A DNA stretch of 64,000 nt, from assembly GCA_026184295.1 (NCBI GenBank), contig JAHCJK010000003.1, positions 14,226 through 78,225 of the forward strand, in the 5' to 3' direction. This DNA comes from Planctomycetota bacterium. Lineage in GTDB: Bacteria; Planctomycetota; SZUA-567; H5-PLA8. The first letter of the stretch is position 1. The number at the start of each line of letters is the position of its first letter. Made by a program: the position numbers and the translations under genes. This document shows positions 6,130-51,152 of the stretch, piece by piece. The notes below the pieces were generated by a model. That model was given only the letters and a program-made list of their open reading frames with translations. It was not told where the DNA came from and did not search any database.

Positions 6130-7401
6130 CTACGGGAGCAGCCACAGGCAGGCCATCGCCACCAGCGTGGGCAGGAGGGCGGTGAGGGCCAAGCGCAGCG
6201 GGCTGATGCCGTCGGGCTGGAAGCGTTCCTGCAGGATCGAGAAGCCCGCGGGGTTCGGGGCGTTGGCGATCACGGTCAGGCCGCCGCCGGCCACCGCGCC
6301 GGCCACCAGCGCGTACTTGAAGGCGTCGGTGACGTTGTCCACCTGCGAGCCGAGAAATGTCAGGGCCGCGTTGTCGGTGAAGGCCGTGAGCGCCGTCGCG
6401 CCCAGGAAGAGCGCCGTGGGTTCGAGGGAGCGGATGACCGAGTCGAGCCACCACTTCTGGAAGCCGCCCAGCACGACCAGGCCGGCGAGGAAGAAGCCGA
6501 CGAGCAGGCTCTCGCGCAGCTTGAGCGGTTCCTGCCAGCGCTTGGTGATCGCCGTCAGGCCCAGGAAGTAGAGGAAGAAGCCCAGGAAGATCTTGGGGTG
6601 GTGCGAGGTCAGCACGACCAAGGCGAGGAAGACCAGGTGGGCCGCGATCACCCAGATGGGGATGGGCTGGTCCTTGGGCGCGTTCTCGGGCTCGGACAGG
6701 TACTTCAATTCCTTGCGCAGGATCATCGTGGCCGCGAAGGCGTTGATCACGACCGCCAGCGCCGACTTCCAGCCGAAGTGCACGAGCATGAAGCCGATGT
6801 CCCACTTCCAGGTCCCCGCGACCATCAGCACCGGCGGCGCGGCGAAGGGCGTCATGGTTCCGCCGATGGAGACGTTCACGAACAGCACCGCGAGCGTGAT
6901 GTACATGAAGCGCCCGCTCATCTGGCGGTCGTAGTAGCGGCGCTTCAGGATCATCGCGGTCACCGTCATCGCGGCGGGTTCGGTGATGAAGCTGCCCAGC
7001 AGCGGCCCGACCACGAGGCAGGTCAGGTAGATCGCGATCTCGCGGTGGAACGGGATCAGCTTCGCCAGGCCGAAGATCGAGCCGCGCGCGAAGCGGATCA
7101 CCGGGGCCGTCGCGGCCACGGTCATGATCGCGAAGACGAAGGCGGGCTCGGTGAAGTTCTGGTGGTCCAGGTGCTCGATCGCCTCGTGCCAGCCGTTCAA
7201 AAAAGCGAAGACGATGACCAGGACGCCGGCCCAGAAGCCGAAGACCGCCTCGACTTCGCCCAGCAGGTGGAAGACGCTCGCCCCGACCGAGTCCTCCGGG
7301 AACTTGTGGGAGATGTGCAGGAAGCGGCTGCAAAGGAAGGTGTGGACGATCGCGATGGCAAACAACGACGTCGCGACGATCTCGATGGTCGTGGGTTGCA
7401 T
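6130..7401 (-). CDS. polytopic membrane transporter (ArsB/NhaD-like permease superfamily, family uncertain)
   Basis: The 423-aa product has 10-12 hydrophobic helices. The start is taken at the ATG of MQPTTIEI. No soluble domains are present. Confidence 0.7.
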   Translation of the reverse strand: MQPTTIEIVATSLFAIAIVHTFLCSRFLHISHKFPEDSVGASVFHLLGEVEAVFGFWAGVLVIVFAFLNGWHEAIEHLDHQNFTEPAFVFAIMTVAATAPVIRFARGSIFGLAKLIPFHREIAIYLTCLVVGPLLGSFITEPAAMTVTAMILKRRYYDRQMSGRFMYITLAVLFVNVSIGGTMTPFAAPPVLMVAGTWKWDIGFMLVHFGWKSALAVVINAFAATMILRKELKYLSEPENAPKDQPIPIWVIAAHLVFLALVVLTSHHPKIFLGFFLYFLGLTAITKRWQEPLKLRESLLVGFFLAGLVVLGGFQKWWLDSVIRSLEPTALFLGATALTAFTDNAALTFLGSQVDNVTDAFKYALVAGAVAGGGLTVIANAPNPAGFSILQERFQPDGISPLRLALTALLPTLVAMACLWLLP

Positions 7402-7638
7402 GAGCCTCCGGGTGAGCGCATGACGCTGCCAGATGGCGGCCCGACCATCCACGTGCCTGCATCGCCTTGCGCGACGCACCCTTCAGAGCCCGTCCCTTGC
7501 ATGACCGGCCCGGCCCCCGTGGGGCGGAACCCTGATACCTGAGGCACGCCCGGGCTGCAAGTCGGGTTTGGCCGGAATCCACGGAAACTCGTGCCAGCGC
7601 TTTACTTCGAGTGCCCATGCCCTTACAAAACAACGCCC

Positions 7639-9390
7639 ATGGAGATCCTCAAGGGCATCCCCGTCTCCCCCGGCGTGTACATCGGCGAGGCCTTTCTGCT
7701 CGTCGGGGAGGAAGTCCGTATCCCCGAACGATTTGTGCCCGCGGAGAAGATGGACAGCGAGGCCAAGCGCTTCGACGATGCCTGCGCCAAGGTCGGCACC
7801 CAGCTCGACGCGATCCGCGGCGATACCGAGTCGCAACTCGGGCCGAATTTCGCCGCGATCCTTTCGGTCCAGACGCAGCTTTTGCGCGATCCCTCGCTGC
7901 GCCAGCGCATCCTCGACAAGATTCGCAAGGACCATTACTCGGCCGAATACGCCGTCGCCAAGACCCTGCGCGACCTGGCCAAAGTGATCGCGGCCAGCGA
8001 CAGCCCGGTGATCGCCCAGCGCGCCTCCGACATCTTCGACCTCGAAAAACGCCTGCTCAACGACCTGCTGGGCGAACAGCGCGAGGACCTGGGGCACTTG
8101 CAACGCCCCGTGGCCCTGATCGCCCACGACCTCGGCCCGTCCCAGACCGCGGCGCTCGACCGCACCAAGGTCCGCGCGTTCGCGACGGACGTCGGCGGGC
8201 GCACCAGCCATACGGCGATCCTGGCGCGCGCGCACGAAATCCCCGCCGTCGTCGGCCTGGAGACGATCACCACCGACGTCGCGGGCGGCGAGACCGTGAT
8301 CATCGACGGCAACCGCGGGATCGTGATCCTGCGCCCCGACGAGCGCACGCTCGCGCGCTACCGCAAGATTCAGCAGGAGTTCGAGGCCTTCGAGGCCACG
8401 CTGATCAAGGACAAGGACCTGCCCTCCGTCACGCAGGACGGGCGCGAGATCCACGTCCTCGGCAACATCGAATTCCCCGAAGAAGTCCGCGGCGTGCTCC
8501 AGCACGGCGCGCAGGGCGTCGGCCTTTTCCGCACGGAGTTCCTGTACCTGAAGAGCGGCGTGATGCCGGACGAGAACGACCATTTCGAGGCGTACCGCAA
8601 GAGCGTATCGAAGCTGAACGGCCGGCCGCTGACCGTCCGCACGCTGGACCTCGGCGCCGACAAGATCGACCGCAACCAGGCCTACAGCGAGCCGAACCCG
8701 TTCCTGGGCCTGCGCTCGATCCGCCTCTCGATGAAGCGCCCGGAGAATTTCCGCACGCAGGTGCGCGCGATCCTGCGCTCGAGCACCCTGGGCAAAGTGC
8801 GCCTGCTGCTGCCGATGATCACCGCCATCGACGAACTGCGCTGGGCCAAGGGCGTCGTCGAGGAAGTGAAGGCCGAACTGGCGGGCAAGAAAGTCCCCTT
8901 CGACGAGAAGATCCCCGTCGGCATCATGGTCGAAGTGCCCTCGGCCGCGCTCCAGGCGCAGGCCATGGCGCGCGAATGCGACTTCCTCTCCATCGGCACC
9001 AACGACCTGGTCCAGTACACGCTGGCCGTGGACCGCGGCAACGAACACGTCGCGCACCTGTATACGCCCGCGCACCCGGCCGTGATCCAGTTGATCAAGC
9101 GCGTCGTGGACGCGGGCCTGGAATTCGACAAGCCCGTCGGCATGTGCGGCGAAATGGCCGGCGAACCGGTCTACACCATCCTGCTCCTGGGCCTGGGCCT
9201 CAGCGAACTCTCCGTCGCGCCGCCTTCGATCCCCAGCATCAAGCGCATCATCCGCACGCTGAAGTACTCCGACTGCCAGTCCGGCGCGCAGGAAGTCCTG
9301 AAGATGGACGACGCCAACCAGGTTCTCGATTACCTGAAGGAACTCGCGCGCAAACTGCTCCCCTCCGACATCCGCTTCGGCGGCATTTAA
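7639..9390 (+). CDS. ptsI: phosphoenolpyruvate-protein phosphotransferase (PTS enzyme I)
   Basis: The N-terminal HPr-binding domain, the PEP-utilising His domain (GGRTSHTAILAR) and the C-terminal PEP-binding TIM domain are all recognisable. Confidence 0.9.
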   Translation: MEILKGIPVSPGVYIGEAFLLVGEEVRIPERFVPAEKMDSEAKRFDDACAKVGTQLDAIRGDTESQLGPNFAAILSVQTQLLRDPSLRQRILDKIRKDHYSAEYAVAKTLRDLAKVIAASDSPVIAQRASDIFDLEKRLLNDLLGEQREDLGHLQRPVALIAHDLGPSQTAALDRTKVRAFATDVGGRTSHTAILARAHEIPAVVGLETITTDVAGGETVIIDGNRGIVILRPDERTLARYRKIQQEFEAFEATLIKDKDLPSVTQDGREIHVLGNIEFPEEVRGVLQHGAQGVGLFRTEFLYLKSGVMPDENDHFEAYRKSVSKLNGRPLTVRTLDLGADKIDRNQAYSEPNPFLGLRSIRLSMKRPENFRTQVRAILRSSTLGKVRLLLPMITAIDELRWAKGVVEEVKAELAGKKVPFDEKIPVGIMVEVPSAALQAQAMARECDFLSIGTNDLVQYTLAVDRGNEHVAHLYTPAHPAVIQLIKRVVDAGLEFDKPVGMCGEMAGEPVYTILLLGLGLSELSVAPPSIPSIKRIIRTLKYSDCQSGAQEVLKMDDANQVLDYLKELARKLLPSDIRFGGI

Positions 9391-9636
9391 CGCCTCTATT
9401 CACCGCGGAGACGCGGAGCACGCAGAGAACAGCTCAAGCCAGACGAATGAAATGCTGCACGGCGAAGCCGATCCAGCCCTGCCCCCTGTGCCCTGATCCC
9501 TATCCCCTGCCGTTCCGTTGCACCCGTGCTCGAATTCCGCGCTAACGCCCTCTTGACCAAAATCGAACTTTTCGCGAAAGTGGACGCTTCGTGGCCGCGC
9601 TGGGAGCGCGCGAGGCCGCGCACGCGAGGAACCTCC

Positions 9637-10449
9637 ATGATCGAGAAGTGCCTGATCGGCATCCGGGACGACACGCTGGGCGCTTCGTGGCAGGAAGCTT
9701 TCGCCGATGCCAAATCCGTCGGCGCCGAATGCCTGGAACTCGACGTGCCCGCGACGTGGCGCGACTACCCCATCTACAGCACCAGCGGACGCAAGAAGCT
9801 CAAGGAGCTTGAGGCCGCCAGCGGCGTGAAGCTGGTCTCCATCTGCCTCGGCGCGTTCTGGAAGCTCTCGCCGTCCTGCCCCGACGCGAACGTGCGCGGC
9901 CAGGCCGAAGCGCTGCTCGCCGAGACGATGCTGGCCTGCGACGCCTACGGCGTCCCGCACATCCTCGTGCCCTTTACCGACTGGAAGGGCGAGCCGCCGC
10001 TGCACTACAACGACCAGAAGCAGGGCTGGGTGAAGGTGCTGACCTCGCTGAAGGACCGCATCGGCAAGGCCAAGACGAAAGTCGGCTTCGAACTCTGCGC
10101 GCGCGACTTCGCGCATTCCGTCCAGCACGGCCTGGAAATCCTCGCCGCTTCGAACACGCCGGCCGGCGCGGGCATCTACTACGACACCGCCAACGGTTCC
10201 GGGCGCGGGCACCTGGCCGAACAGGACATCCCCAAGCTCGCCGGCACCAAGCGCCTCGCCGCCGTGCACATCAAGGACACGGGCGGAAGCCACCTGGGCG
10301 AAGGCAAGGTCAACTGGCCGGAAGTGAAGAAGGCGCTCGAGGCCGCGCAGTATGCGGGCCCCTTCGTGCTCGAAACGCCCGGCGGCGACGACATGATGGC
10401 ATCGGCAAAGAAGAACCTGGATTTCGCGAAGAAGCTCTTCCGGGGCTGA
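9637..10449 (+). CDS. sugar phosphate isomerase/epimerase (xylose-isomerase-like TIM barrel)
   Basis: The 270-aa product matches the AP-endonuclease-2/xylose-isomerase-like TIM-barrel fold. Confidence 0.75.
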   Translation: MIEKCLIGIRDDTLGASWQEAFADAKSVGAECLELDVPATWRDYPIYSTSGRKKLKELEAASGVKLVSICLGAFWKLSPSCPDANVRGQAEALLAETMLACDAYGVPHILVPFTDWKGEPPLHYNDQKQGWVKVLTSLKDRIGKAKTKVGFELCARDFAHSVQHGLEILAASNTPAGAGIYYDTANGSGRGHLAEQDIPKLAGTKRLAAVHIKDTGGSHLGEGKVNWPEVKKALEAAQYAGPFVLETPGGDDMMASAKKNLDFAKKLFRG

Positions 10450-10578
10450 CGGATCAGCGAAGAAACTCTTCCGCTGCTGACGAACCAGGCAGGAACCGCT
10501 CTTATCCTTCCAGATTGCGACCTACAGACGGTCAGTAAGCTCGGTCTCATCGTCCCAGCATAGCTCGTCTGGCTGTTA

Positions 10579-10966
10579 GCCCCGCAAAGCGGGGCTTTGT
10601 TCGAGCGAAGCGAGCATAACCCCCGGCTTCAGCCGGGGGCGTGAGCGCGCGTATGCGGGCGCTACCCCCGTTCACGGGGGTTCCCAATTTGGCAGGAGGC
10701 TTCAGCCATGGCACGGAATTATTACGCAGAACTTTTCTACCATATTGTATGGCGCACAAAACGCAGCGAGGCGCGCATAGTCCCGGAAATAGAAGCGCGC
10801 GTGCACGCGGCCATTGATGGAGCGCATCGAACCGTCGGCCTGAAGGCCCGGCGGGATTGTGGCAACCCCCGTAAACGGGGGTATTCCATTTGAAGTGCCG
10901 CTCACTCCCCCGGCTAAAGCCGGGGGCTATACTCGCTTCGCTCGAAAAAAGCCCCGCTTCGCGGGG
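10579..10966. mobile_element. REP/RAYT remnant: a truncated IS200-like tyrosine transposase ORF flanked by three nested REP-like hairpins in mirror symmetry
   Basis: Upstream hairpins are gccccgcaaagcggggc (10579-10595), cccccggcttcagccggggg (10620-10639) and cccccgttcacggggg (10665-10680). They are mirrored downstream by cccccgtaaacggggg (10865-10880), cccccggctaaagccggggg (10906-10925) and gccccgcttcgcggggc (10950-10966). The flanking sequences ttcgagcgaagcgag and ctcgcttcgctcgaa are also reverse complements. Confidence 0.7.
10708..10893 (+). pseudogene. truncated REP-associated tyrosine transposase (IS200/IS605 TnpA-like, Y1 HUH family) fragment
   Basis: The N-terminus MARNYYAELFYHIVWRTKRSEARI matches the conserved start of IS200-like transposases (YHxVWxTK). 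The ORF ends after 61 aa, well short of the HUH motif and catalytic Tyr, and runs into a REP hairpin. Confidence 0.6.
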
Positions 10967-11053
10967 CTCAACCATTCGACCGATGACAATGTCCGAGGAG
11001 TTCCTACCTGTGGCGTGAACGCTTACCGTTCCGACATCTGCGGGCTCGGATTA

Positions 11054-13198
11054 TCAGTTGTACTCCATCGTATAACCTTCCGGCGAGTTCATGTACCACT
11101 TCACCCCGGTCCAGAGGATCACGGCAAGGGCCTCGCCCACGATCAGCCCGACGAAGTAGCGTTTCCACGAGAGGTACGTGCGCTGGCCGCCGTACTTCAG
11201 GATCAGGAACTTGAAGAGCCAGCCGAGGAAATACGAGAACCACATGCGGTGGAGCGGCCAGGTGCCCATCCACATCACGTAGCCGATCGGGTGCGGCCAC
11301 CAGAAAAGGCGCGTGCGCAGGAACAGGAAGACGCCCATCGCCAGCGCGCCCACGATCAGCCAGCCGAGGCGAATGCCGTCGGTGCGCGCGACGGTGGGGA
11401 TTTCCGGCTCGGGAATCTCCTTGCCTTCCAGGGCGAACTTCTTCTGCTTCTCCTCCCACGCGTTGATCTGCGCCATCTTGTTCGCGAGGTTCTTGAATTC
11501 GCCCTGCGCGTGCGCGTCGTACGCCCAGCCGAAGGGCTTCGCGCCGCCCGGCGCGTTGTAGCAGGTCGAGTAGTACGACCAGAACGAGATGCCGAAGGTC
11601 AGCACCAGCGCGGCGGCCAGTCCTAAAAAAAGCGGGCGCTGGCGCATGCGCGTCAGCGATCCGAGATGCAGCGCGCCGACGACGTTGATCATGGGATTGC
11701 TGCGGTACCAGTCGAACGCGAAGACGCGGCTCCACATGCTCAGCAGCAGGAAGTTCTGCGCGCCCATGCCCACGGGCGTAAAGACCGAGGCGAGCTGTTC
11801 CGCGGGGTTCCCGTACATCTGCAGCCAGAAGACGCCGCCTTCGCAGACCAGCCGGGTCACGCCCGTCACCGAGCAGAGCAGGATGCAGACGGCGATCACC
11901 GACCACCCGAGGCTCACGCCCGCCCACATCAGCCAGGCCACCGACCCGATCATGCAGGAGACGAGCATCAGCCAGATCACGCGCGGCGAGACGTGCGCTT
12001 CGTCGTCGAAGGGTTCCAGGCCCAGCGCCTGGCGGAGGGACTGCAGCATCCCCGCGCGCGCCATGAAAAAGCCCACGAACACCATCATGAAGCACGCGCC
12101 GACGCCCTGCGCCGTAAAGATGCTGGCCGCGCCCTCCGTCCCGCCGAAATACCAGGCGCTGGTCCCCAGCCCGAACCACGCGACCGCGATAATGACGCCG
12201 AGCTTGAAGACGACTTCGTAGAAGAACCAGAGGCTGAACGAGACCTCCAGCGAGACCAGGTACATGATCCCGATCACGCTGGGATAGATGATGAAATAAT
12301 TCGGATGCGTGTAGCGGAAGGGCGTCTCGGTCAGGTAGGTGCCGTCGATGTGGGTGATGCGCAGCGGTATCTGCGCGATGATGCCGGGGAAGAAATCCCC
12401 CATGCCGTTGTACAGATGCAGCAGCAGCGTGGTCATGATGCCCAGCCAGGCCACCGTATCGGCAAGAAACGGCTCCTGCCCGTCGGCTTCCGCGTGCGGC
12501 AGGCCGCTCATCATGATCTCGGGCACCTGCGCGAGCGGGAACGGAATCCGTTCGCGGCGGCTCCAGTGCTGCTGCAGGAGCGCGCCGAGCGCCAGGAACA
12601 TCCCCAGGACGAGCACCAGCGCCAGGCACCAGCGCAGGTAGGGCATCGCGAGCAGGCTCCACGGGGTATCCTGCCCCGGCGGCACGCCCGTAAAGAACCA
12701 CTGCACCGGCCGCGGGTCCAGGGAGTTCGGGTCGATGGGGTCGCGCGGGGCCAGGCCTTCGGGGATCAGCGGGTGGAGCAGCGTGGCCCAGTTGTTCTCC
12801 GGCGTGGCGTAAAAGAACCCGCCCATCTGCTCGACGCTCATGTAGACCATGAAGCCGTACGTCGGGAGCGGGTTGATGAGCATGGTCATGGCGAAGATCA
12901 GCGCCAGGTCCTGCCGCGAAAGCGCCAGCCTTTTCCGGAACTGCGCCAGGCCCATGTTGAAGAGAAGAATGAAGCCGAAGAGGAAGAAAATGGAGGTCGG
13001 CGGCAGCAGGTTCATCGAATACTTCGTGCTGCGGATCACGAGATCGATGTAGGGGAGCAGCCAGGCGATCAGCGCCACGCAGACGAGGCCCATCACCCAG
13101 CCGCGCGCCGAAGGCGTGGAATCGTCCTGGCCCAGCACCGGACCCGAGACGGCACCGCTTTCCAGGCGCGGGCCGAGTCGGTATTCACGCTTGCTCAA
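11054..13198 (-). CDS. large polytopic membrane protein of uncharacterised family, paralog A (714 aa)
   Basis: It has about 14 or more TM helices. It shares the motifs PFPLAQ, IYPSVIG, LSLE(V/I)SFSLWF, WFPHPIGYVMWMG and LKYGG with the 43210-45330 protein. Confidence 0.8.
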   Translation of the reverse strand: MSKREYRLGPRLESGAVSGPVLGQDDSTPSARGWVMGLVCVALIAWLLPYIDLVIRSTKYSMNLLPPTSIFFLFGFILLFNMGLAQFRKRLALSRQDLALIFAMTMLINPLPTYGFMVYMSVEQMGGFFYATPENNWATLLHPLIPEGLAPRDPIDPNSLDPRPVQWFFTGVPPGQDTPWSLLAMPYLRWCLALVLVLGMFLALGALLQQHWSRRERIPFPLAQVPEIMMSGLPHAEADGQEPFLADTVAWLGIMTTLLLHLYNGMGDFFPGIIAQIPLRITHIDGTYLTETPFRYTHPNYFIIYPSVIGIMYLVSLEVSFSLWFFYEVVFKLGVIIAVAWFGLGTSAWYFGGTEGAASIFTAQGVGACFMMVFVGFFMARAGMLQSLRQALGLEPFDDEAHVSPRVIWLMLVSCMIGSVAWLMWAGVSLGWSVIAVCILLCSVTGVTRLVCEGGVFWLQMYGNPAEQLASVFTPVGMGAQNFLLLSMWSRVFAFDWYRSNPMINVVGALHLGSLTRMRQRPLFLGLAAALVLTFGISFWSYYSTCYNAPGGAKPFGWAYDAHAQGEFKNLANKMAQINAWEEKQKKFALEGKEIPEPEIPTVARTDGIRLGWLIVGALAMGVFLFLRTRLFWWPHPIGYVMWMGTWPLHRMWFSYFLGWLFKFLILKYGGQRTYLSWKRYFVGLIVGEALAVILWTGVKWYMNSPEGYTMEYN

Positions 13199-13413
13199 AT
13201 ACTTCCCTCGCGAACGCCGCGCCTGCGAAACACGCAGGGTACCGACCGGATTGAGGTTAAGGCTGCAATGTAGTATTCGTACACCGCTCGCGTCAAACTA
13301 CATTGCAAAATAGCAAGAAGCCCGGGCCTCTGAATATTTTCCGAAGAAAAAATGGAAATACCGCCCAGCCCCTTCTACCTTCACCTAGGTTGAACGTCGC
13401 CACGGAGACCGAC

Positions 13414-15027
13414 ATGCGAAAGGCCCTTTTCGCCGCCCTGCTGTGCCTCGCCGCGGCGCGCGCGCACGCGGATACGATCACGCTCAAGGACGGGACGGTG
13501 GTGGAAGGCGCCATCGTGGAGGAGAACGACGTCTCGATCGTGGTAAAGCTGAAGTTCGGGAAGGTCACTTACAAGCGCGACGAGATCAAGGAAATCGTCC
13601 GGGCGGCGGCGGTCTCCAACCCCGGCGACCTGCGCGACGTGATCAAACTGAGGAACGGCGAGACCCAGCATGGCCTGATCGTCAGCGAGAACGAAAAGGA
13701 AGTGACCGTGGACCTGGTGATGAGCGGCAAGACGGTCACCAAGACGATGTTCGCGCGCATGACGTACCGGCGCGGCGAGATCGACGAGATCAAGGCCATC
13801 ACGCCCGAGCAGCGCGCGGCGGTGCGCGCGTATTTCGAACGCACCGAATCCCAGGCCAAGGAAGACACGCTCAACGAGCAGATGATCCAGATTCAGCCGC
13901 ACCAATGGCCCAGCAAGGACCCGGAAAAGAAGATTCCCTGCAAGAAGGTCGAACTCGAAAACTTCACCATCGAGTCCAACACGAGCGATGAATTCCTGCG
14001 CAAGGTCGCCTTCCGCCTCGGCAAGGTCTTCGGGGCGTACCGGCAGCACTTCGGCATCGAGCGCAACCAGGACGTGAAGGTGCGCGTGGTCATCTTCAAT
14101 TCGATGGCCGAATACCAGGCGGCGATCGGCGGGCAGATCATGAATCCCGCCTTCTACGCGCCGGATTTGAAGCTGATCTCCGCCGGCTGCGACGTGGCGC
14201 AGTACGAGGACATGATCAAGGAAATCCGCGCCCACTACGCGCGCCTCGACCGGGAACTGGAGGAGTGGAAGAAAAAGATCGACGCCGCCCGCGCGGACAT
14301 CCAGGGCCAGGTGAGCCGCTACTACGAGGCCGCCAACCGCGGCGGCAAGGGCATCACGCCGCAGGACAAGGCGCTGCTCGACGCCATCCAGGGCGAAAAG
14401 ACGCGCCTGCAGCTCTACCTCGGGCAGCTCGAAAAGCACGCCAACGAAGTCCAGGACCAGATTTTCGCTTTGAACCGGCGCAACGACATCGTCTTCCAGC
14501 AGGCCACCGGGGCCATGTTCGCCACGCTGTACCACGAAGGCTTTCACGCCTTCCTCGACAACTACCTCTTCCCCGACGATCTGCGCAAGAGCGTCCCGCT
14601 GTGGCTGAACGAGGGCCTCGCCCAGTACTTCGAGGCCGCGCGCATCGAGAACAACCGCTTCATCCTCGGCCAGGAAGACCGCGCCAAGATGGCGATGCTC
14701 CGCACCTGGAACAAGGCCAACGAACTGGTGCCGCTGGCCAGCCTGGCCGTGGCGGAATCGAAGGAGTTCCTCGTCAAGGACCTCTCGAACGTCGAGAATT
14801 CCACCAAGCATTACCTGCAGGCCTGGGCGCTGACGCACTTGCTCGGCGAGGCCGGCCGGCTGAACATGCCCACGCTGCGCGGCTACGTGCAGGCGCTGAA
14901 GGACGGCAAGCCGCCGCTGCATGCCCTGCCGCTGCTGACCGGCATGAGCAACGAACAGTTGCAGACCAAGTGGGAAGAGAAACTGAAGTACGCCCACGAG
15001 CGGAACGCCCCGCCCGCCGCGCCTTGA
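13414..15027 (+). CDS. secreted DUF1570-like putative zinc metallopeptidase (HExxH)
   Basis: The start is taken at the ATG of the signal peptide MRKALFAALLCLAAARAHA. The product has repeated beta-strand-like N-terminal modules, the motif YHEGFHAF (HExxH) and a downstream WLNEGLAQYFE, which together resemble the DUF1570 / MA-clan-like family. Confidence 0.7.
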   Translation: MRKALFAALLCLAAARAHADTITLKDGTVVEGAIVEENDVSIVVKLKFGKVTYKRDEIKEIVRAAAVSNPGDLRDVIKLRNGETQHGLIVSENEKEVTVDLVMSGKTVTKTMFARMTYRRGEIDEIKAITPEQRAAVRAYFERTESQAKEDTLNEQMIQIQPHQWPSKDPEKKIPCKKVELENFTIESNTSDEFLRKVAFRLGKVFGAYRQHFGIERNQDVKVRVVIFNSMAEYQAAIGGQIMNPAFYAPDLKLISAGCDVAQYEDMIKEIRAHYARLDRELEEWKKKIDAARADIQGQVSRYYEAANRGGKGITPQDKALLDAIQGEKTRLQLYLGQLEKHANEVQDQIFALNRRNDIVFQQATGAMFATLYHEGFHAFLDNYLFPDDLRKSVPLWLNEGLAQYFEAARIENNRFILGQEDRAKMAMLRTWNKANELVPLASLAVAESKEFLVKDLSNVENSTKHYLQAWALTHLLGEAGRLNMPTLRGYVQALKDGKPPLHALPLLTGMSNEQLQTKWEEKLKYAHERNAPPAAP

Positions 15028-20500: not shown

Positions 20501-21146
20501 CGCGCACGAGCACCGTCGCGCGCACCGGTCCGGGAGCCTCGACCGAAATCGATTCGATCTGCACGGCGCCGGTCTCGCGCTTGGCCTCCGGATCGGCGCA
20601 GAGGAAGCGGTTGAAGGGAAAGGCCCGGCCGCTGGTCCCGTCGTCGATGCGCGACGTCTCCACCACCAGGCGCGCGGGCTTGCCCGCCGCGACGACGGTC
20701 TTGCCGCCGATCGCCAGTTCGTCCACGACGCCCTGGCCGTTCTTGTTGATGGAGGCCGTCACGCCGCCGCCGGTGACGCGCGCGTCCGCGCCGTTCAGCG
20801 CCACGGCCATCGGGTCGTTGACCGCCGCGCGCGCGACGCCCGCGCCGTATTCCAGCATCAGGTTCTGCCCTTCTTTGGGCGTCAGCACCGCGTCGATGAG
20901 CGCCCACTTCACGCTCCCGTCGGGCCAGACCGCGTGCTTCGCGACCTGGCAGGGAATCTCCTTCTTGTCCGCGCCGAGCAGCCGCACGTGTTCGACCGAA
21001 TCGAGCGCGCCCTTGGGGAACGGGATGCCGCCCGTCACCGGCACGGCTTCGCCGCCGTCGGTCACTTCGACGCGCAGCGGCACCTGTTCGGCCGCCCACG
21101 CATGGGTGAGGACTAGGGCCAGGAGGACGGCGGCGGCGGTTCGCAT
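17520..21146 (-). CDS. large secreted protein (1208 aa), possibly polysaccharide-active, family unrecognised
   Basis: The signal peptide is MRTAAAVLLALVLTHAWA. The ORF is long and clean. It sits beside other carbohydrate-utilisation genes. Confidence 0.75.
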   Translation of the reverse strand: MRTAAAVLLALVLTHAWAAEQVPLRVEVTDGGEAVPVTGGIPFPKGALDSVEHVRLLGADKKEIPCQVAKHAVWPDGSVKWALIDAVLTPKEGQNLMLEYGAGVARAAVNDPMAVALNGADARVTGGGVTASINKNGQGVVDELAIGGKTVVAAGKPARLVVETSRIDDGTSGRAFPFNRFLCADPEAKRETGAVQIESISVEAPGPVRATVLVRGFLLLPSFGATLPKEVKDREPAGRMPFSMRLSFYRGSAIVTGQHQIIFSGEPDCDFIQRWGIEWPGCAGTSGTLVLEPGVELRGVPGAMKVAPEPSRLCWAPVQGGFALIRQGWQHRPCAITQENGSAWIDFWPRAAGAWDLRRYAREWAVGESGDLRNPDDLLRFAKYAARGMAKSHDFAMHFGSAAQPGPAPAAVKELSERALLVAPPGWYAKTEALGPIAPKQETGAYAALDAEITRRADYYLYCQDLYRWHGKLVYGFFQSRFGEVHRHDRWDNDYGRWGWALNDGAGRFGHVLMLQFLRTLDRRYFDAGEAFGRINYDTNMVHTVQHLENCKGWWTATGASHRHNVQPFGCPYVGMRGSYPVGQRIQHLLTGDGVMADGLDLVADASFRYASGEGSRLCNSGGSDGQGSASNALLWKYETTGDKKYLDACRKILDLSGLVPPKEGKGLGYGPSFGLFNAAGEYADLSGDKAFQDRVVELARQGAKDKNATTFAYAIAMGARFSKDEALKAKLEEMLKKEAASEGRGLAELPAKDWPGHGGFRTPEFPANLYRDVPTGLGVLVGPGNLEWPKAAAGSPPAPALPPADWYKPGGAQAAGERVPAAKELLALKPGEKPGDLSGGGVTWPAQKALADDMEVGGAHPLAAPIEGYVMLDNGKLETLRAEVTGIGAGAHGGVIATAKAGPATLVFKLAPAQADGVASVRVEAACQVPQGSGRVASWGLKIPCKLSGKGTAVMSTAPGRFRLERCRLDQNDEKIPSWLSAMEGREKLPHWPLWREAGIQAGPGLHYRIWHANRADTSPVYVDQGEGPCAWFDLTDRGGAQRWGVTARVLRAEATAADLSRLAVRANMETGVLLVQFHDEAAEPQSEAAGAAGLSGACDLIFHDGWRPPLSKPELTQAQYDRFIDDANIGESYGLNALRFTLSDTHKVKGREWMVKIRDLGVEPRELLYGMQGGDVLSTLCQKAGVAFDANDVEGTVKRVVEHYRK

Positions 21147-38305: not shown

Positions 38306-38390
38306 CTGTCACAAAATGTAATTTACTTGGCCATAGGTGTTTCGAATTATGTGTGACACGGGGATTGACAATGTGTGACAGTATGTTACA
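38306..38390. promoter_or_regulatory. candidate DeoR operator array: direct repeats ATGTGTGACA (38349-38358, 38371-38380) plus related TGTCACA / TGTTACA copies
   Basis: The motif family is repeated in the divergent intergenic region between the GH2 gene and the DeoR regulator gene. Confidence 0.5.
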
Positions 38391-38420
38391 GTTCGAACGA
38401 TCACGAATCCGAGGTCCGGC

Positions 38421-39218
38421 ATGCTCCTTCAAGAACGTCACCGCTGGCTGATCGAGACCGTGCGCAAGCAGGGTTCGCTCTCCGTTTCGGAAGCGGCCCG
38501 GGCGCTGAAAGTCACGCGCATGACGGTCTACCGCGACCTGAGCGACCTCGACGCGCAGGGCGCGCTGCGCAAGGTCTACGGCGGTGCCGTGGCGCTGCAC
38601 CGCCCGACCGACGGCAACGGTTTCTGGGCGCAGTCCTTCGAGGAACGCCGGCCGAAGGAGCCGGACCGCAAGACGGCGATCTCGCGGCATCTGGCGCGGC
38701 TGCTGGAAGGTTCGCACACGCTGGCGATGGACGCGAGTTCCACGGTCTTCGCGCTCGCGCACGAACTCCCCGGATTCAACGACTCGCGCAGCCTTTTCGT
38801 GGTCACCGGCGGCGTGCCGCTCTTTCACGAACTGATGAACCGCGGCGGGCGCGTGCGCATCGCGCTGCACGGCGGCGAACCTCATCCGCGCACGGGCTCG
38901 CTGGTCGGCCCGCTGGCGCTGGCGTCTTTAAAGGTGATGCGCTTCGACTGGGCGGTCGTCTCGGCCGTGGGCATGATGGAAGACGAAGGCGTCGTGTACG
39001 ACTCCACGCCCGAGGAAGCCGAGATCAAGCGGGCCTACATGGCGCAGGCGCGCCGCAAGGTTCTCGCCATCGACACCACCAAGCTCAACCGGTCCGCGCC
39101 GTACCGGCTCGCGGATCTTTCCGAATTCGATGCATGGGTGAACGAAGAGGGAATCCACTGGACCAGCCGGAAAGCCACGCGCGCGCGCAGCGCCCGCGGC
39201 GCCGCCCGGACGGCCTAA
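38421..39218 (+). CDS. DeoR-family transcriptional regulator (rhamnose operon regulator-like)
   Basis: An N-terminal HTH (LSVSEAARALKVTRMTVYRDL) is followed by a DeoR-C sugar-phosphate-binding domain. It is the first gene of the rhaI/rhaD operon. Confidence 0.9.
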   Translation: MLLQERHRWLIETVRKQGSLSVSEAARALKVTRMTVYRDLSDLDAQGALRKVYGGAVALHRPTDGNGFWAQSFEERRPKEPDRKTAISRHLARLLEGSHTLAMDASSTVFALAHELPGFNDSRSLFVVTGGVPLFHELMNRGGRVRIALHGGEPHPRTGSLVGPLALASLKVMRFDWAVVSAVGMMEDEGVVYDSTPEEAEIKRAYMAQARRKVLAIDTTKLNRSAPYRLADLSEFDAWVNEEGIHWTSRKATRARSARGAARTA

Positions 39219-39239: not shown

Positions 39240-40472
39240 ATGGATACGTGGCGAGAAGAATGGAAGCTGCTTGAACGCAAACTGCAGAACCGCGGGCTCG
39301 ACGTGGGCGCGATCCGCAAGCGCATCGCGGGGTTCCGCTGCGAGACGCCGTCGTGGGGCTACGGCCCGAGCGGGACGCGCTTCGGCGTCTTCCCGCAGTC
39401 CGGCGAGGCCCGCACGATCTGGGAAAAGCTCGAGGACGCCGCCGAGTGCCACCGCCTGACCAAGATCTGCCCGACGGTCGCCGTGCACATCCCGTGGGAC
39501 AAGGCGAGCGACTGGGGCAAGGTGCAGGCCTTCGCCGAGGAACGCGGCGTGAAGATCGGCGCCGTGAACCCGAACGTCTTCCAGGACCATGAATACAAGT
39601 ACGGTTCCTTCGGCCACTGCGACCCGAACGTGCGGGCCAAGGCGCGCGCGCACATGCAGGAATGCTGCGAGATTATGAAGGTGACCGGCAGCGACCTTCT
39701 TTCGCTCTGGTTCGCCGACGGCACCGATTACCCGGGCCAGGCCGACTTCCGGCAGCGCAAGCACTGGTTCGAAGAGGAACTGAAGGCCACCTACGCGATG
39801 CTGCCCAAGAACGGGCGCATGCTCGTCGAATACAAGTTCTTCGAGCCCGCCTTCTACCACACCGACATCGCCGACTGGGGCATGGCGCTCAGCTTCGCGC
39901 AGAAGTGCGGCGAGCGCGCGCAGGTGCTGGTGGACCTGGGCCACCACGCGCACGGCGTGAACATCGAACACATCGTTTCCTTCCTGATCGACGAAGGGCG
40001 CCTGGGCGGCTTCCACTTCAACAACCGCAAGTACGCCGACGACGACTTGACCTGCGGCTCGACGAACCCGCTGGAACTCTTCCTCATCTTCACCGAACTC
40101 GTCGCGGCCGAGGGCGAAGCGGCGACGCTGAAGCACCCGATCGCGTACATGATCGACCAGAGCCACAACACCAAGCCGAAGCTCGAAGCGATGATCCAGA
40201 CGGTCGAGTTCATCCAGACGGCGCAGGCCAAGGCGCTGCTGGTCAACCGCAAGAAGCTGAAGGAATGCCAGGCCAACAACGACGTGGTCGGCGCCGAACG
40301 CTGCCTGACCGAAGCGTACAACACCGATGTCGAGCCGCTGCTGATGAGCGTGCGCGAGGAACTGGGCGCGGCGCTGCAGCCGCTCGAGATTTACCGCCTG
40401 AGCGGCTACGCGAAGAAGACCGCCGAACAGCGCAAAGGCAAAGTCGCCGGCGCGGGCCTGGGCGTGAACTGA
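39240..40472 (+). CDS. rhaI: L-rhamnose isomerase (Pseudomonas stutzeri / Rhizobium type, xylose-isomerase-like TIM barrel)
   Basis: The 410-aa product carries the motifs WGYGPSGTRF, HIPWDKA, LVDLGHHA, GGFHFNNRKYADDDL and MIDQSHN, which are characteristic of this L-RhI family. Confidence 0.88.
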   Translation: MDTWREEWKLLERKLQNRGLDVGAIRKRIAGFRCETPSWGYGPSGTRFGVFPQSGEARTIWEKLEDAAECHRLTKICPTVAVHIPWDKASDWGKVQAFAEERGVKIGAVNPNVFQDHEYKYGSFGHCDPNVRAKARAHMQECCEIMKVTGSDLLSLWFADGTDYPGQADFRQRKHWFEEELKATYAMLPKNGRMLVEYKFFEPAFYHTDIADWGMALSFAQKCGERAQVLVDLGHHAHGVNIEHIVSFLIDEGRLGGFHFNNRKYADDDLTCGSTNPLELFLIFTELVAAEGEAATLKHPIAYMIDQSHNTKPKLEAMIQTVEFIQTAQAKALLVNRKKLKECQANNDVVGAERCLTEAYNTDVEPLLMSVREELGAALQPLEIYRLSGYAKKTAEQRKGKVAGAGLGVN

Positions 40473-40499: not shown

Positions 40500-40937
40500 A
40501 TGGGCGTGCTAACCGACCTCATCGTCGCAGATCCAGCCCAAGCGAAGGAGATTTGCCAGACGCATGGCAAGAAACCCTTTCCTTCGGTGGACATTAAGGG
40601 GTTCGACCAGATCAAAGGCGCGACTCTCTGGAGCATCCTGGAAGGCTCTGACGTTTCGGATGTCGATTACGTGGTCGGGCTATCCGAGAAGTTCACGTTG
40701 TTGTGCGAGGAAAGCGATGACGGGCCTTGGGTGTACCAGGTGCCGGACGAGTTCCTGAAACTGATTGCATCCACCGAAGATGAGGCTGTTGGAGAAATGG
40801 TAGAGGCGTGGTCGCAAACCGAGGAGTTCGACGGCTACAGCCTGGAGGATGTGCAGTTCTACTTCGACACATTGTTCGAAGCTGCTACACGCTCGGACCT
40901 GGGGAGCAAGAAGCTCCTGATGTGGATTTGTCTGTAA
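40500..40937 (+). CDS. acidic hypothetical protein (145 aa), compositionally atypical gene inside the rha operon
   Basis: An ATG-initiated clean ORF. Its GC and codon usage (cta, att, aca, ttg) are visibly lower and different from the flanking rhaI and rhaD. No similarity to rhamnose mutarotase. Confidence 0.5.
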   Translation: MGVLTDLIVADPAQAKEICQTHGKKPFPSVDIKGFDQIKGATLWSILEGSDVSDVDYVVGLSEKFTLLCEESDDGPWVYQVPDEFLKLIASTEDEAVGEMVEAWSQTEEFDGYSLEDVQFYFDTLFEAATRSDLGSKKLLMWICL

Positions 40938-40959: not shown

Positions 40960-43083
40960 ATGAGCACAGCAGAAAAGACCTTCAAGCACGTGAGCTACCT
41001 GTGGGAGGACGCCAAGGTTCCCGCCGATCCGGTCGGCCAGCTGCTGATCCGGTCGAACTGGCTGGGCGCGGACCTGCGCATCACCAACTTCGCGGGCGGC
41101 AACACGAGCGTGAAGTGCATGGAAAAGGACCCGCTGACCGGCGAACAGACCGAGGTCATGTGGATCAAAGGCTCCGGCGGCGACCTGGGCACGATGAAGA
41201 AGTCGGGCCTAGCCTGCATCGAGATGAAGAAGTTCTTCGCGCTAAAGAAGATTTACCGCGGGCTGAAGCACGAAGACGAGATGGTCGGCTACCTGCCGCA
41301 CTGCACGTTCAACCTGGTGAGCACCGCGGCCTCGATCGACACGCCACTGCACGCCTTCATCCCGCGCCCGCACGTCGACCACCTGCACCCCGACAGCATC
41401 ATCGCCATCGCGGCCAGCAAGGACGGCGAGAAGCTGACCAAGGAAATCTTCGGCGGCAGCGTCGCCTGGATTCCGTGGCAGCGCCCCGGCTTCGACCTGG
41501 GCCTTAAGATTGGCGAATGCTACGCCAAGCACCCCGGCATCAAGGGCATCATCCTCGGCGGGCACGGGCTCTTTTCGTGGGGCGACACCGCGCGCGCCTG
41601 CTACGAGAGCACGCTGGAACTGATCGAAGCGGCCGCGGAATTCCTCGCCGCGAAGGAGAAGGCCAAGCCGGCCTTCGGCGGCAAGGTGCGCGAATCGCTG
41701 AGCCCCGAAGAACGCCGCGCGCAGGCCGCCAAGGCCATGCCGGTGCTGCGCGGGCTGACGTCCTCGGTCAAGCGGACCATCGGGCACTTCCGCGACGACG
41801 CGGCGGTCCTGCAGTTCCTCGAATCGAAGGATCTGCAACGCCTGGCGGCGACGGGCACGAGCTGCCCCGACCACTTCCTGCGGACCAAGCGCACGCCGCT
41901 GGTGATGGACCTGGACCCCAAGGCCGACCCGCTGGCCGAACGCGCCCGGCTGGCCGCGCAGTTCGACCAGTACCGCGCCGACTACGCCGGCTACTACGAA
42001 CGCTGCAAGCACCCCGACTCCCCCGCCCTGCGCCCGCCCGATCCCGCGATCGTGCTCTGGCCGGGCGTCGGGATGTTCTCGTTCGCGAAGGACAAGCCCA
42101 CCGCGCGCGTGGCGGCGGAATTCTACGTCAACGCGATCAACGTGATGCGCGGGGCCGAGACGGTCTCGTCGTACGTCGCGATCAGTGAGCAGGAAGCCTT
42201 CGACATCGAATACTGGGCGCTCGAGGAAGCCAAGCTCAAGCGCATGCCGCCCGAAGCGCCGCTCTCGCGGCGCGTCGCGCTGGTCACCGGCGCGGGCAGC
42301 GGCATCGGCAAGGCCATCGCCGAACGGCTGGCGAAGGAAGGCGCGTGCGTCGTCGTCGCGGACATGAACGAGGAAGCCGCGAAGTCTTCGGCGCAGAGCA
42401 TCATGCAAACCTGCCCCGAACGCGCCGCGGCGGTGCGTTCGAACGTCACCGACCCGAAGGACGTGGCCGCGGCCTTCGATGCGGCTTGCCTGGCCTTCGG
42501 CGGCGTGGACCTGCTCGTCAACAACGCAGGCCTTTCGATCTCGAAGTCGCTCGTCGAGACCACCGAGAAGGACTGGGACCTGCAGTTCGACGTGATGCCG
42601 AAGGGCAGCTTCCTGCTCAGCCAGGCCGCGGCGCGCTGCTTCGATGCCCAGGGCATCTCGCAGGAAGGCAGCCTGAAGAACCTCGGCGGCGACGTGGTGT
42701 ACATCGTGAGCAAGAACGCGCTGGTCGCGCAGCCGAACAACATCGCGTACGGTTCGGCCAAGGCGGCGCAGTTGCACCAGATGCGGCTGCTCGCGGCGGA
42801 ACTGGGCCCCAAGGGCGTGCGCGTCAACGCCGTGAACCCCGACGCGGTCGTGCGCGGCTCGGGCATCTTCGCCAGCGGCTGGGGCGCCGACCGGGCCAAG
42901 ACCTACGGGATCAGCGAGGACAAGCTGCCGGCCTTCTACGCCAGCCGCACGCTGCTGAACCAGGAGATCCTGCCCGACGACATCGCGCTGGCCGTCTTCG
43001 CGCTCGTCGGCGGGCAGCTTTCCAAGAGCACCGGCATGACGATTCCGGTGGACGGGGGCCTGGCGCCCGCGTTCCAGCGTTAA
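40960..43083 (+). CDS. rhaD: bifunctional rhamnulose-1-phosphate aldolase / short-chain dehydrogenase
   Basis: A class-II aldolase/adducin N-terminal domain is fused to a C-terminal SDR (TGAGSGIGKA Rossmann motif, YGSAK catalytic motif). The ~707-aa architecture matches Rhizobium-type RhaD. Confidence 0.9.
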   Translation: MSTAEKTFKHVSYLWEDAKVPADPVGQLLIRSNWLGADLRITNFAGGNTSVKCMEKDPLTGEQTEVMWIKGSGGDLGTMKKSGLACIEMKKFFALKKIYRGLKHEDEMVGYLPHCTFNLVSTAASIDTPLHAFIPRPHVDHLHPDSIIAIAASKDGEKLTKEIFGGSVAWIPWQRPGFDLGLKIGECYAKHPGIKGIILGGHGLFSWGDTARACYESTLELIEAAAEFLAAKEKAKPAFGGKVRESLSPEERRAQAAKAMPVLRGLTSSVKRTIGHFRDDAAVLQFLESKDLQRLAATGTSCPDHFLRTKRTPLVMDLDPKADPLAERARLAAQFDQYRADYAGYYERCKHPDSPALRPPDPAIVLWPGVGMFSFAKDKPTARVAAEFYVNAINVMRGAETVSSYVAISEQEAFDIEYWALEEAKLKRMPPEAPLSRRVALVTGAGSGIGKAIAERLAKEGACVVVADMNEEAAKSSAQSIMQTCPERAAAVRSNVTDPKDVAAAFDAACLAFGGVDLLVNNAGLSISKSLVETTEKDWDLQFDVMPKGSFLLSQAAARCFDAQGISQEGSLKNLGGDVVYIVSKNALVAQPNNIAYGSAKAAQLHQMRLLAAELGPKGVRVNAVNPDAVVRGSGIFASGWGADRAKTYGISEDKLPAFYASRTLLNQEILPDDIALAVFALVGGQLSKSTGMTIPVDGGLAPAFQR

Positions 43084-43209
43084 TCCTGAAAAGCGCTGGG
43101 TAACGCCCCGCGCCGGGCTATCATAGGTTCGATTCCACATCGGATGCGCGCGCCCGCGCCGGTTCCGTCCGCAACCGGCCGGGGCGCATCCCGGAATTGA
43201 GAACCGCTC

Positions 43210-45330
43210 ATGTCCGAACCGGCGCCTCCGCACGCGCAATCTCCCGAACTTCACGGCCACCGCCGCATGCTCTCGGACCTCCCGGTGCAGACCATCGGGA
43301 TGACGACGCTGCCGTCGGAAAACCCGACCTGGCGCGGCTGGGTCCTGGGATTCTTCTGCGTCGCGGCCATCTGCCTGGTGATCCCGTATTTCGATTTCGT
43401 CCTGCGCGGCACGATGTTCTCGAACAGCATGTTTCCCGCCAGTTCGGTCTTCATCCTCTTCGCGCTTTGCGTGGGCGTGACGGCGCTCCTTTCGGCCTAC
43501 CGGACCGCCCTGGGGCTGACCAGCCAGGACCTGGTGCTGGTCTTCGGCATGACGATGGTGGTGAACGCGATTCCAGGCTGCGGCTTCTGGGTCTTCTGGG
43601 TCACGCAGACGACGGGCGGGTACTTTTTCAAGTCGCCTGAAAACAACTACGACAAGCTGGTGCTCCCGCACATCCCCGAATCCTGGGCCCCGCACGACAA
43701 CGAGACCATCCGGCCCATCGAATGGTTCTACACCGGGCTGCCGCCGGGCAAGGAGATTCCCTGGGGCGCGTGGGTCGGCCCGTACATCATCTGGTGCCTG
43801 GCCCTGCTGATGATTTTCGGAATGATCTTCGCGCTCTGCGGCCTGTTGCGCCGGCAATGGTCCGATCACGAGCAGCTCACCTTTCCGCTCGCGCAGCTTC
43901 CCCAGGATATGGTCTCCGGCCTGTACGGCGGGCCCACGGCGCCGTTTCTCAAGGACCGCCTGGCCCTGTGGGGCATCGGGCTCACCTTTCTCTTCCATTC
44001 GTGGAACAACTTCGGCGACTACTTTTCGCAGGTGCCGCGGATTCCGCAGGGCGCGGACCTGCATCAGTACCTGCTGGAACCGCCCTTAAACGCGCTGCTG
44101 CCGGTCTGGGCGAAGATTTATCCGTCGGTCATCGGCCTGACCTACCTGCTCTCGCTCGAGATCTCCTTCAGCCTCTGGTTCTATTTTCTGGCGCTGAAGG
44201 CGATCGCGTTCAGTTCGACGCAATCCGGCCTGCTGCCGATGGGCAAGTACTGGAGCGGCCCGTTCGTCGATCAGGGCACGGGCGCGCTGATCGGCATGGC
44301 GGTCGGCGCGCTGTACATGGCGCGCTACGAACTCGGGGGCTCCTTTCTGGAAGCGATCGGCAAGCGCGCGCAGCGTCAGGAAACCTCGGACCCGAGCCCG
44401 CGCCTGCTCTGGACGATGCTGGTGGCCTGCTTCGCCGGCTCGGTCGCCTGGATGATGTGGATGGGCGTCGAACCGGTGTACGCGCTGAGCATGCTTCTGT
44501 TCCTGCTGCTGGTGATGGTGGGGATGACGCGACTTTCGTGCGAAGGCGGGCTCTTTTTCATGCAGATGACGGTCTTCCCGCTGAACTTCGTCAACCTGTT
44601 CGGCACGCCGGTTAACATGGGCGCGACGCAGTACGTGCGCCTGGCCATCTGGGACCGCGTGATGGTCGCGGACTGGTACCGCGTGCTCTTCATGCCCAAC
44701 GTCATGAACGGCCTGCACCTGGCCAGCCGCACCAGCCTGCGCCGCCGGCCGCTCATGGCCGCGATGGCCTGTGCGGTGGTCGTGGCGCTCGTGGTCAGCT
44801 TCTTTTCCATGCTCACCACCGCGTACAAGGCCCCGGGCGGCGCGACGCAGATGGCCTGGTATTTCAAGGATCATCCGATCAGCGAATACAAGAGCATGGC
44901 CGCGACGACCTCGCAGATCGCCAGCTACGAAACGAAGCTCGCGAAGGCCGAAGCCGAGCAGCGCGAGGTGCCCTATTCCGACCTGCCCGATGCCGCCCGG
45001 CGCGACTGGTGGCGCGTCTTCTGGATCGGCCTGGGCATGGGGTTCATGTTCCTGAGCCTGATGCTGCGCCGGTTTTTCTTCTGGTTCCCGCATCCGATCG
45101 GCTACGTGATGTGGATGGGTCCCTACCCCGACCTGTGCCTGTGGTTCTCGTTCTTCATCGGCTGGGCGATCAAGCTTACGCTGCTGAAATTCGGCGGGAG
45201 CCGCATGTACATGCGGACGAAACGCTTCTTCATCGGAATCGTGATCGGGGAGGCCTGCGCGATCGTGGTCTGGAAGCTGGTGGCGCTCTTCGCCAACAAC
45301 ATCAACGGCATCAACATCCTGCCGGGCTGA
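43210..45330 (+). CDS. large polytopic membrane protein of uncharacterised family, paralog B (706 aa); candidate rhamnose transporter
   Basis: It is the last gene of the rha operon and has about 14 or more TM helices. It shares the motifs PFPLAQ, IYPSVIG, LSLEISFSLWF, WFPHPIGYVMWMG and LKFGG with paralog A at 11054-13198. Confidence 0.8.
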   Translation: MSEPAPPHAQSPELHGHRRMLSDLPVQTIGMTTLPSENPTWRGWVLGFFCVAAICLVIPYFDFVLRGTMFSNSMFPASSVFILFALCVGVTALLSAYRTALGLTSQDLVLVFGMTMVVNAIPGCGFWVFWVTQTTGGYFFKSPENNYDKLVLPHIPESWAPHDNETIRPIEWFYTGLPPGKEIPWGAWVGPYIIWCLALLMIFGMIFALCGLLRRQWSDHEQLTFPLAQLPQDMVSGLYGGPTAPFLKDRLALWGIGLTFLFHSWNNFGDYFSQVPRIPQGADLHQYLLEPPLNALLPVWAKIYPSVIGLTYLLSLEISFSLWFYFLALKAIAFSSTQSGLLPMGKYWSGPFVDQGTGALIGMAVGALYMARYELGGSFLEAIGKRAQRQETSDPSPRLLWTMLVACFAGSVAWMMWMGVEPVYALSMLLFLLLVMVGMTRLSCEGGLFFMQMTVFPLNFVNLFGTPVNMGATQYVRLAIWDRVMVADWYRVLFMPNVMNGLHLASRTSLRRRPLMAAMACAVVVALVVSFFSMLTTAYKAPGGATQMAWYFKDHPISEYKSMAATTSQIASYETKLAKAEAEQREVPYSDLPDAARRDWWRVFWIGLGMGFMFLSLMLRRFFFWFPHPIGYVMWMGPYPDLCLWFSFFIGWAIKLTLLKFGGSRMYMRTKRFFIGIVIGEACAIVVWKLVALFANNINGINILPG

Positions 45331-50545: not shown

Positions 50546-50568
50546 CGTCCGGCTCCCGTCGCTTCGGA

Positions 50569-51138: not shown

Positions 51139-51152
51139 GCGCGTCCCTTCGT

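Follow-up and report, generated by a model that had tools for sequence, protein, structure and literature searches.

The genes at positions 11054-13198 and 43210-45330 of a 64,000-nucleotide stretch of DNA from a Planctomycetota bacterium (assembly GCA_026184295.1, contig JAHCJK010000003.1) encode, as judged from their sequences, two true and ancient paralogues of one membrane protein family. We call these proteins A and B and the whole stretch the window, to which all positions refer. Both are members of the Pfam families DUF6785 and DUF6784, A is predicted to take the fold of the Yellow Stripe 1 (YS1) symporter of the OPT superfamily, and B is the last gene and the sole transporter gene of an L-rhamnose operon. 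The best explanation, to which we give a probability of about 0.6, is that the family forms a very divergent branch of the YS1/OPT fold that is visible by structure only, and that A and B are importers, B serving the rhamnose operon and A taking up another small product. DUF6785/DUF6784 is then probably a new type of nutrient importer, likely for sugars, in glycan-degrading bacteria. The gene pair itself is ordinary, consisting of two members of a catalogued family of domains of unknown function (DUFs). A large DUF family with the YS1/OPT fold and with members in carbohydrate-catabolic operons was unreported in the literature searched. An initial annotation, made from the letters of the window, had pointed to the pair; the cataloguing in Pfam, the link to the OPT fold and the L-rhamnose operon of B go beyond it.

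The homology of A and B was established by pairwise alignment, which gave 41% identity and 59% positives over 685 amino acids (501 bits, E 3e-173, BLASTP with composition-adjusted statistics). The segments FPLAQ, IYPSVIG, SLExSFSLWF and PHPIGYVMWMG fell into the same alignment columns. The initial annotation had both open reading frames (ORFs) exactly right, and the blocks of shared motifs that it described were found in register. The motif strings that it quoted were correct in their cores, but four of them overran the match in one of the proteins by 1-2 residues: PFPLAQ and LKYGG are exact in A only, where B reads TFPLAQ and LKFGG, and the strings starting with LSLE and WFPHP are exact in B only, where A reads VSLE and WWPHP. 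It had also stated what would overturn the pairing, namely that the motifs are compositional, reflecting hydrophobic low complexity in two unrelated ORFs. When B was shuffled 50 times with its composition preserved, the highest score against A was 30 bits, as compared to 501 bits for the real pair. Both ORFs were matched end to end by the same two Pfam models and had a GC content at third codon positions (GC3) of about 0.90 (0.90-0.91), like the other genes of the 66% GC window. Because the motifs are in register and the shuffled sequences score so low, the likeness of A and B reflects homology by position, and a purely compositional, hydrophobic origin is vanishingly improbable. The conserved hydrophilic insert that had been described ahead of the last helices was present in both proteins (A 549-611, B 541-603). 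This insert is the stretch that separates DUF6785 from DUF6784, where long family members carry insertions.

As had been supposed, the two proteins belong to a single uncharacterised membrane protein family. A scored 323.1 bits and B 376.1 bits with DUF6785 (PF20581, gathering score 25), and 77 and 74 bits, respectively, with DUF6784 (PF20580, gathering score 26.4), which follows at the C-terminal side. No further Pfam family and no NCBIfam model matched A or B. The two-domain architecture is common to all homologues found, and A and B are plain members. Both Pfam families are functionally unassigned, no mention of their names was found in the literature searched, and the GenBank entries identical to A and B, which share one 94,973-bp contig, are named 'hypothetical protein' in the Planctomycetota metagenome-assembled genome (MAG) KIS92. 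The most conserved motifs are FPLAQ, IYPSVIG/SLEVSFSLWFF and CEGG in DUF6785, and PHPIGYVMW and KYGG in DUF6784. An apparent absence of A from GenBank was rejected as a clustering artefact: in the protein database A (P0295) belongs to a 90%-identity cluster whose representative, a 43-aa fragment with the name 'shikimate 5-dehydrogenase', masked the exact GenBank match.

The size of the family was determined by searching a 48-member profile against 1.84 billion representatives, which yielded 8,544 clusters at 50% identity when the cutoff was E <= 1e-3, and 3,364 when it was E <= 1e-30. In species-representative genomes more than 570 family matches were observed, nearly all of them in MAGs from Planctomycetota, Poribacteria, Latescibacterota, Armatimonadota and Gemmatimonadota. 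No family homologue was found in the plasmid collection. The family expansion that had been proposed from the two copies is seen genome-wide, with eight copies in the KIS92 MAG (01320, 01435, 18375, 11185, 10470, 06365, 00565 and 09210) and about 5 to 7 in each related Planctomycetota MAG, where three stand in tandem in L009/L010. In a neighbour-joining tree without bootstrap, A grouped with P0001, M5U26_00650, M5U26_19990, AMX7_45750 and HY291_11920, and B with P0122, KIS92_10470, KIS92_06365, P0031 and M5U26_08195. Since A and B belong to distinct clades, and both clades also hold orthologues from other MAGs, the duplication behind A and B is older than the divergence of these MAGs.

Some family members depart from the common form. 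At L004 7726-9981, in tandem with M5U26_09520, a split copy (594 aa with no Pfam match recorded, plus a 134-aa DUF6784 fragment) is likely a frameshifted or pseudogenised paralogue. FtsX and MacB_PCD were the sole fusion-partner domains found, and the other long members have internal insertions without a Pfam domain. In the fused sub-branch DUF6785/DUF6784 is joined into a protein of about 2,100 aa (P0190, 2,120 aa) with, or stands directly before, a protein of about 1,600 aa carrying FtsX, MacB_PCD and M28 peptidase domains. This linkage was observed at P0190, L060, L069, L078, L064, L080 and L082, in Latescibacterota, Gemmatimonadota and unclassified MAGs.

The fold was assessed with an AlphaFold2 model of A, built on a 48-sequence alignment, which reached a predicted local distance difference test score (pLDDT) of 92.1 and a predicted template modelling score (pTM) of 0.91, with disorder limited to residues 1-23. 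The whole predicted protein superposed on the YS1 symporter with 532 residues aligned, and it shows the core and scaffold domains, formed from inverted repeats, of the YS1-type fold. We regard the fold assignment from this model as solid. The conserved motifs of DUF6785 and DUF6784 fall in or beside predicted helices and are candidate substrate and gating sites. YS1 is a plant iron-chelate transporter; in HvYS1 the proton sites are Asp446, Asp490 and Asp494, and the dimer is pinned by Cys250-Cys671. Compared to YS1/YSL and the OPT superfamily (TC 2.A.67, PF03169; structures 7wsr and 7wst), identity was merely 9-12%, a hydrophilic insert of variable length separates the two Pfam domains, and the context of B is carbohydrate catabolism and not the use of peptides or metal chelates.

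B is the final gene of a co-directional run in which a DeoR-type regulator, the L-rhamnose isomerase RhaI, a YfbM-like protein and the bifunctional RhaEW precede it, with gaps of 21, 27, 22 and 126 nt in this order (Table 1). No terminator-like site was found in the RhaEW-B spacer; the stem-loop in it is a possible processing or regulatory element. The promoter-like site ahead of the DeoR gene is likely the start of the operon, judging from its consensus match. A lies in no such operon. Rfam revealed no riboswitch near A or B. The 145-aa protein KIS92_01425 was considered as a mutarotase and rejected. Its sole fold match, a weak one of the YfbM type, is uninformative on the substrate.

RhaT, an L-rhamnose:H+ symporter, is the usual permease of RhaI/RhaEW operons. 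When the window was searched with E. coli RhaT (tblastn), nothing was found at E <= 0.01, and no homologue of E. coli RhaB or RhaM was detected in the 64 kb either. The only other transport proteins of the window were a Na+/H+ antiporter and a TonB-dependent receptor; no further inner-membrane nutrient transporter was present besides the family of A and B. Among 22 complete related RhaEW loci, all metagenomic, RhaI was present in every one, rhamnulokinase in 16, beside RhaI, and RhaT directly upstream of RhaEW in 10. As B is the only transporter in its operon and RhaT precedes RhaEW in 10 of the 22 relatives, B holds the usual position of the permease. Because it is predicted to be co-transcribed with the DeoR, RhaI and RhaEW genes and occupies this slot, B is most likely an importer of the rhamnose type. 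RhaT and B share the role in the operon but no sequence similarity, and RhaT, with about 345 aa and a DMT/EamA-type structure, has an unrelated fold; B would be at most its functional analogue.

We infer the transport activity, its direction, the proton coupling and the substrates as follows. A and B would be inner-membrane, proton-coupled secondary importers of the elevator type, whose core domain would move against the scaffold by analogy to YS1. B would import L-rhamnose, or else a small product, containing rhamnose or derived from it, that the neighbouring glycan-degrading enzymes set free, and would thereby feed RhaI and RhaEW under the control of DeoR. A, with its own putative promoter, and the six other paralogues would import other small products, which are probably derived from glycans.

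The locus of A corresponds to its earlier description as a stand-alone gene near ptsI and a TIM-barrel gene. A is monocistronic, both ptsI (7591-9390) and the xylose-isomerase-like TIM-barrel gene (9526-10449) adjoin it, and it is convergent with the latter and divergent from a DUF1570 gene. Its start codon is TTG, identical to the start in the GenBank entry and preceded by the Shine-Dalgarno-like GAGGGAAG; B starts with ATG. In P0001, the closest orthologue of A (73% identical), a convergent ptsI is kept (90% identical), and M5U26_19990 keeps a nearby CobA/HemD gene. Such conservation reflects synteny that relatives share and is no evidence for an operon. The 605-bp gap between A and the TIM-barrel gene holds a decayed IS200/RAYT-like element. 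At 10578-10968 a 70-nt inverted repeat (91% complementary) and an inner 24-nt inverted repeat bracket an ORF of about 61 codons, which starts with MARNYYAELFYHIVWRTKRS... and resembles the N-terminus of an IS200/RAYT-type transposase; this looks like a decayed element of the REP/RAYT type or of the miniature inverted-repeat transposable element (MITE) type. On the other side of A, the DUF1570 gene (13303-15027, plus strand) encodes an N-terminal signal peptide and the HEGFH motif of HExxH zincins, and on this basis its product may be a secreted metalloprotease.

The generality of the sugar link was examined in the neighbourhoods of other family members. In Poribacteria, a sulfatase gene stands directly upstream of the family gene in 13 loci, with a GHL10 gene in the vicinity; on the downstream side, an enolase-superfamily gene follows directly in 7 loci and is within the locus in 11. 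L-rhamnonate dehydratase was the best model for this gene with 243 bits, compared to <=127 bits for other models, a score that is below the cutoff of that model. HY291_11920, from the clade of A, overlaps the preceding gene of a LacI-headed operon that contains a Pect-lyase_RHGA_epim rhamnogalacturonase-type protein, and a protein with a Rha78A-type Ig domain adjoins this operon. M5U26_08195, from the clade of B, is divergent from a sugar-acid-dehydratase-like gene, and the tandem array of three copies in L009/L010 has an AraC/cupin regulator and a xylose-isomerase-like TIM barrel as its neighbours. Of about 16 independent contexts, 5 or 6 were clearly of the carbohydrate type and 0 clearly of the peptide type; the remainder was uninformative. 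A glycan product is a probable substrate of A because of the neighbourhoods of its clade-mates and the rhamnose-glycan genes of the window. The substrate diversification among paralogues that had been proposed presupposes a transporter; it appears reasonable given the predicted YS1/OPT fold and the differing neighbourhoods of the paralogues.

Several results weigh against the importer reading or narrow it. Pfam OPT (PF03169) did not match A or B even at E <= 1, and the 48-sequence family profile matched no PDB sequence, with no YS1 chain at E <= 10. The relation to OPT therefore stands at likeness of a predicted fold; A and B are filed under DUF6785/DUF6784, and not in the OPT family, and may work like an OPT/YS1-type transporter. 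Sugars are absent from the known substrates of OPT proteins, which comprise peptides, glutathione, metal chelates, folate and peptidoglycan fragments. Rhamnulokinase is missing from the operon of B, and kinase, mutarotase and RhaT were undetected in the whole 64 kb. The association with the operon was not conserved in related genomes: a DUF6785 gene was found in 0/80 of the closest RhaEW loci in metagenomes, and RhaI or RhaEW in 0/83 of the DUF6785 loci retrieved by then (tblastn with the RhaI and RhaEW of the window; matches at the level of short-chain dehydrogenases only). From these two counts the rhamnose linkage is lineage-specific, and the rhamnose claim is confined to B, whose relatives at 56-59% identity have unrelated genes around them. 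In a Pfam scan, 115 non-redundant neighbours fell into 183 Pfam families with no dominant theme (PhyH 5, TPR 4, sulfatase 3, glycoside hydrolase family (GH) 43 2, xylose-isomerase-like TIM barrel 2). The gene divergent from A encodes the putative secreted HExxH protease, the one hint towards a peptide substrate for A, and the FtsX/MacB-like fusion in one sub-branch is at odds with a simple importer. The evidence on the substrate is suggestive and lineage-specific.

Two other explanations were weighed against nutrient import of glycan products. A and B could be OPT-type transporters of a canonical substrate, such as oligopeptides, glutathione, muropeptides or metal chelates, next to which the sugar genes would be incidental. 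Their sole structural relative is an OPT/YSL transporter, the characterised OPT substrates are all peptide-like or chelates, and the DUF1570 protein could supply peptides to A. The adjacency of DUF1570, though, was kept at none of the other fetched family loci, the orthologues of A included. The Poribacteria clusters contain an Amidase_3 gene, and peptide recycling by Amidase_3 together with an MR_MLE 'epimerase' was considered there; it was rejected, as NCBIfam places the MR_MLE proteins with the sugar-acid dehydratases. The enolase-superfamily neighbours scored 243 and 164 bits as such dehydratases, and <=32 bits as L-Ala-D/L-Glu epimerase. No peptidase, Opp/Dpp or siderophore-synthesis theme was seen among the 115 neighbours, the neighbouring regulators are of the DeoR, LacI and AraC types, and B is placed within a rhamnose operon. 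We consider a canonical OPT substrate unlikely.

Even less probable is a role other than import in envelope or glycan biology, with the proteins acting as exporter or flippase, as membrane-embedded enzyme or as sensor ('transceptor'). The sub-branch that is fused to or adjoins FtsX/MacB_PCD permease-like domains would fit such a role, as would the conserved neighbours in Latescibacterota, a spermidine-synthase-like membrane protein and FG-GAP/ASPIC proteins, and the many copies that stand alone without a catabolic partner. B, however, belongs to a catabolic and not to a biosynthetic operon, one that has no other permease; the model of the whole protein can be laid over that of a genuine symporter; and 5 to 8 divergent copies per genome are typical of substrate-specific uptake systems. 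Within the importer reading a stronger version can be formulated, in which DUF6785/DUF6784 is an unrecognised, carbohydrate-transporting branch of the OPT/Yellow Stripe fold with the first OPT-type importers of sugars or oligosaccharides, B is a rhamnose (6-deoxy-sugar) permease that replaces RhaT, and the paralogues are the 'missing' permeases of glycan loci. This version is tentative, and we would sooner bet against it than for it.

The rest of the window is rich in rhamnose-glycan genes. A GH78 alpha-L-rhamnosidase is encoded at 53062-55881 and a PcRGLX-like rhamnogalacturonan lyase of 1,208 aa at 17520-21146, accompanied by a protein like carbohydrate-binding module family 9 (CBM9), a GH2-like protein of 1,691 aa, an SGNH/GxDLY esterase and two LacI regulators. 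Taken together, the segments 17520-23162, 31684-38247 and 53062-60875 give the window the appearance of a region for rhamnose-glycan utilisation. A protein of 884 aa (57136-59790, minus strand) had no Pfam match and was 44% identical over its full length to the product of an 895-aa gene of the M5U26 MAG (L004 808-3495), which is located 6.5 kb from DUF6785 copies. Apart from these genes, an nhaA-I (Na+-sensing) riboswitch (RF03057, 7431-7481, minus strand; 49 bits, gathering score 37) was found at the 5' end of the Na_H_antiport_3 gene (6130-7479). The called start of this gene overlaps the riboswitch, and the true start codon is therefore probably further downstream. At 49484-52562 (minus strand) three genes have the N-methylation motifs of type IV pilins and type II secretion system pseudopilins (N_methyl, T2SSG); they adjoin an ORF of 1,273 aa that no Pfam family matched and whose GC3, at 0.73, is atypically low.

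Table 1. Positions in the window of the two paralogues, the domains of A and the elements of the operon of B
Feature	Position	Strand	Remarks
Paralogue A	11054..13198	-	714 aa; GenBank MCW8129000.1 (KIS92_01320); DUF6785 + DUF6784 polytopic membrane protein; predicted Yellow Stripe 1/OPT-like fold
DUF6784 domain of A (aa 612-709)	11072..11365	-	holds the motifs PHPIGYVMWMG and LKYGG
Hydrophilic linker of A (aa 549-611)	11366..11554	-	long amphipathic helix 559-591 (secondary structure of the model); length variable family-wide
DUF6785 domain of A (aa 32-548)	11555..13105	-	motifs FPLAQ (220), IYPSVIG (304), SLEVSFSLWF (316)
Promoter-like site upstream of A	13267..13296	-	9/12 consensus matches; consensus match only; in the 104-bp divergent region shared with the DUF1570 gene
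Promoter-like site before the DeoR gene	38365..38392	+	10/12 consensus matches, extended -10 TG; consensus match only
DeoR-family sugar-responsive regulator, operon gene 1	38421..39218	+	Pfam HTH_DeoR + DeoRC
L-rhamnose isomerase RhaI	39240..40472	+	TIGR02635, 559.6 bits (cutoff 531)
145-aa protein KIS92_01425	40500..40937	+	rare family (5 homologues), YfbM-like fold
Bifunctional rhamnulose-1-phosphate aldolase / short-chain dehydrogenase RhaEW	40960..43083	+	TIGR02632, 982 bits (cutoff 568)
GC-rich stem-loop in the 126-nt RhaEW-B spacer	43125..43205	+	no T-tract; fold of 43084-43212: -60.7 kcal/mol, z -2.6
Paralogue B	43210..45330	+	706 aa; GenBank MCW8129022.1 (KIS92_01435); DUF6785 aa 40-540, DUF6784 aa 604-696

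Complex glycans, often sulfated and rich in methyl-pentoses, have major degraders among the Planctomycetota and several candidate phyla. To our knowledge, the passage of the glycan products across the inner membrane is poorly defined in these bacteria. A study of fucoidan-degrading Planctomycetota stated that the cellular uptake mechanisms "remain unexplored", and transporters were optional in its definition of a polysaccharide utilisation locus (PMC11685898). With about 8,500 clusters, between 5 and 8 copies in a genome and the predicted fold of transporters so far linked to peptides and chelates only, the DUF6785/DUF6784 family is a testable candidate for sugar uptake at the inner membrane, and its recurrent siting beside rhamnose and sugar-acid genes makes it a concrete candidate for the uptake step of glycan products. 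If this is true, the range of substrates and the phylogenetic depth of the Yellow Stripe/OPT fold would be wider than described, and two Pfam DUFs would become an annotatable transporter family. The multi-copy expansion of this family would then provide the glycan-utilisation loci of Planctomycetota, Poribacteria, Latescibacterota, Armatimonadota and Gemmatimonadota with their 'missing' inner-membrane permeases.

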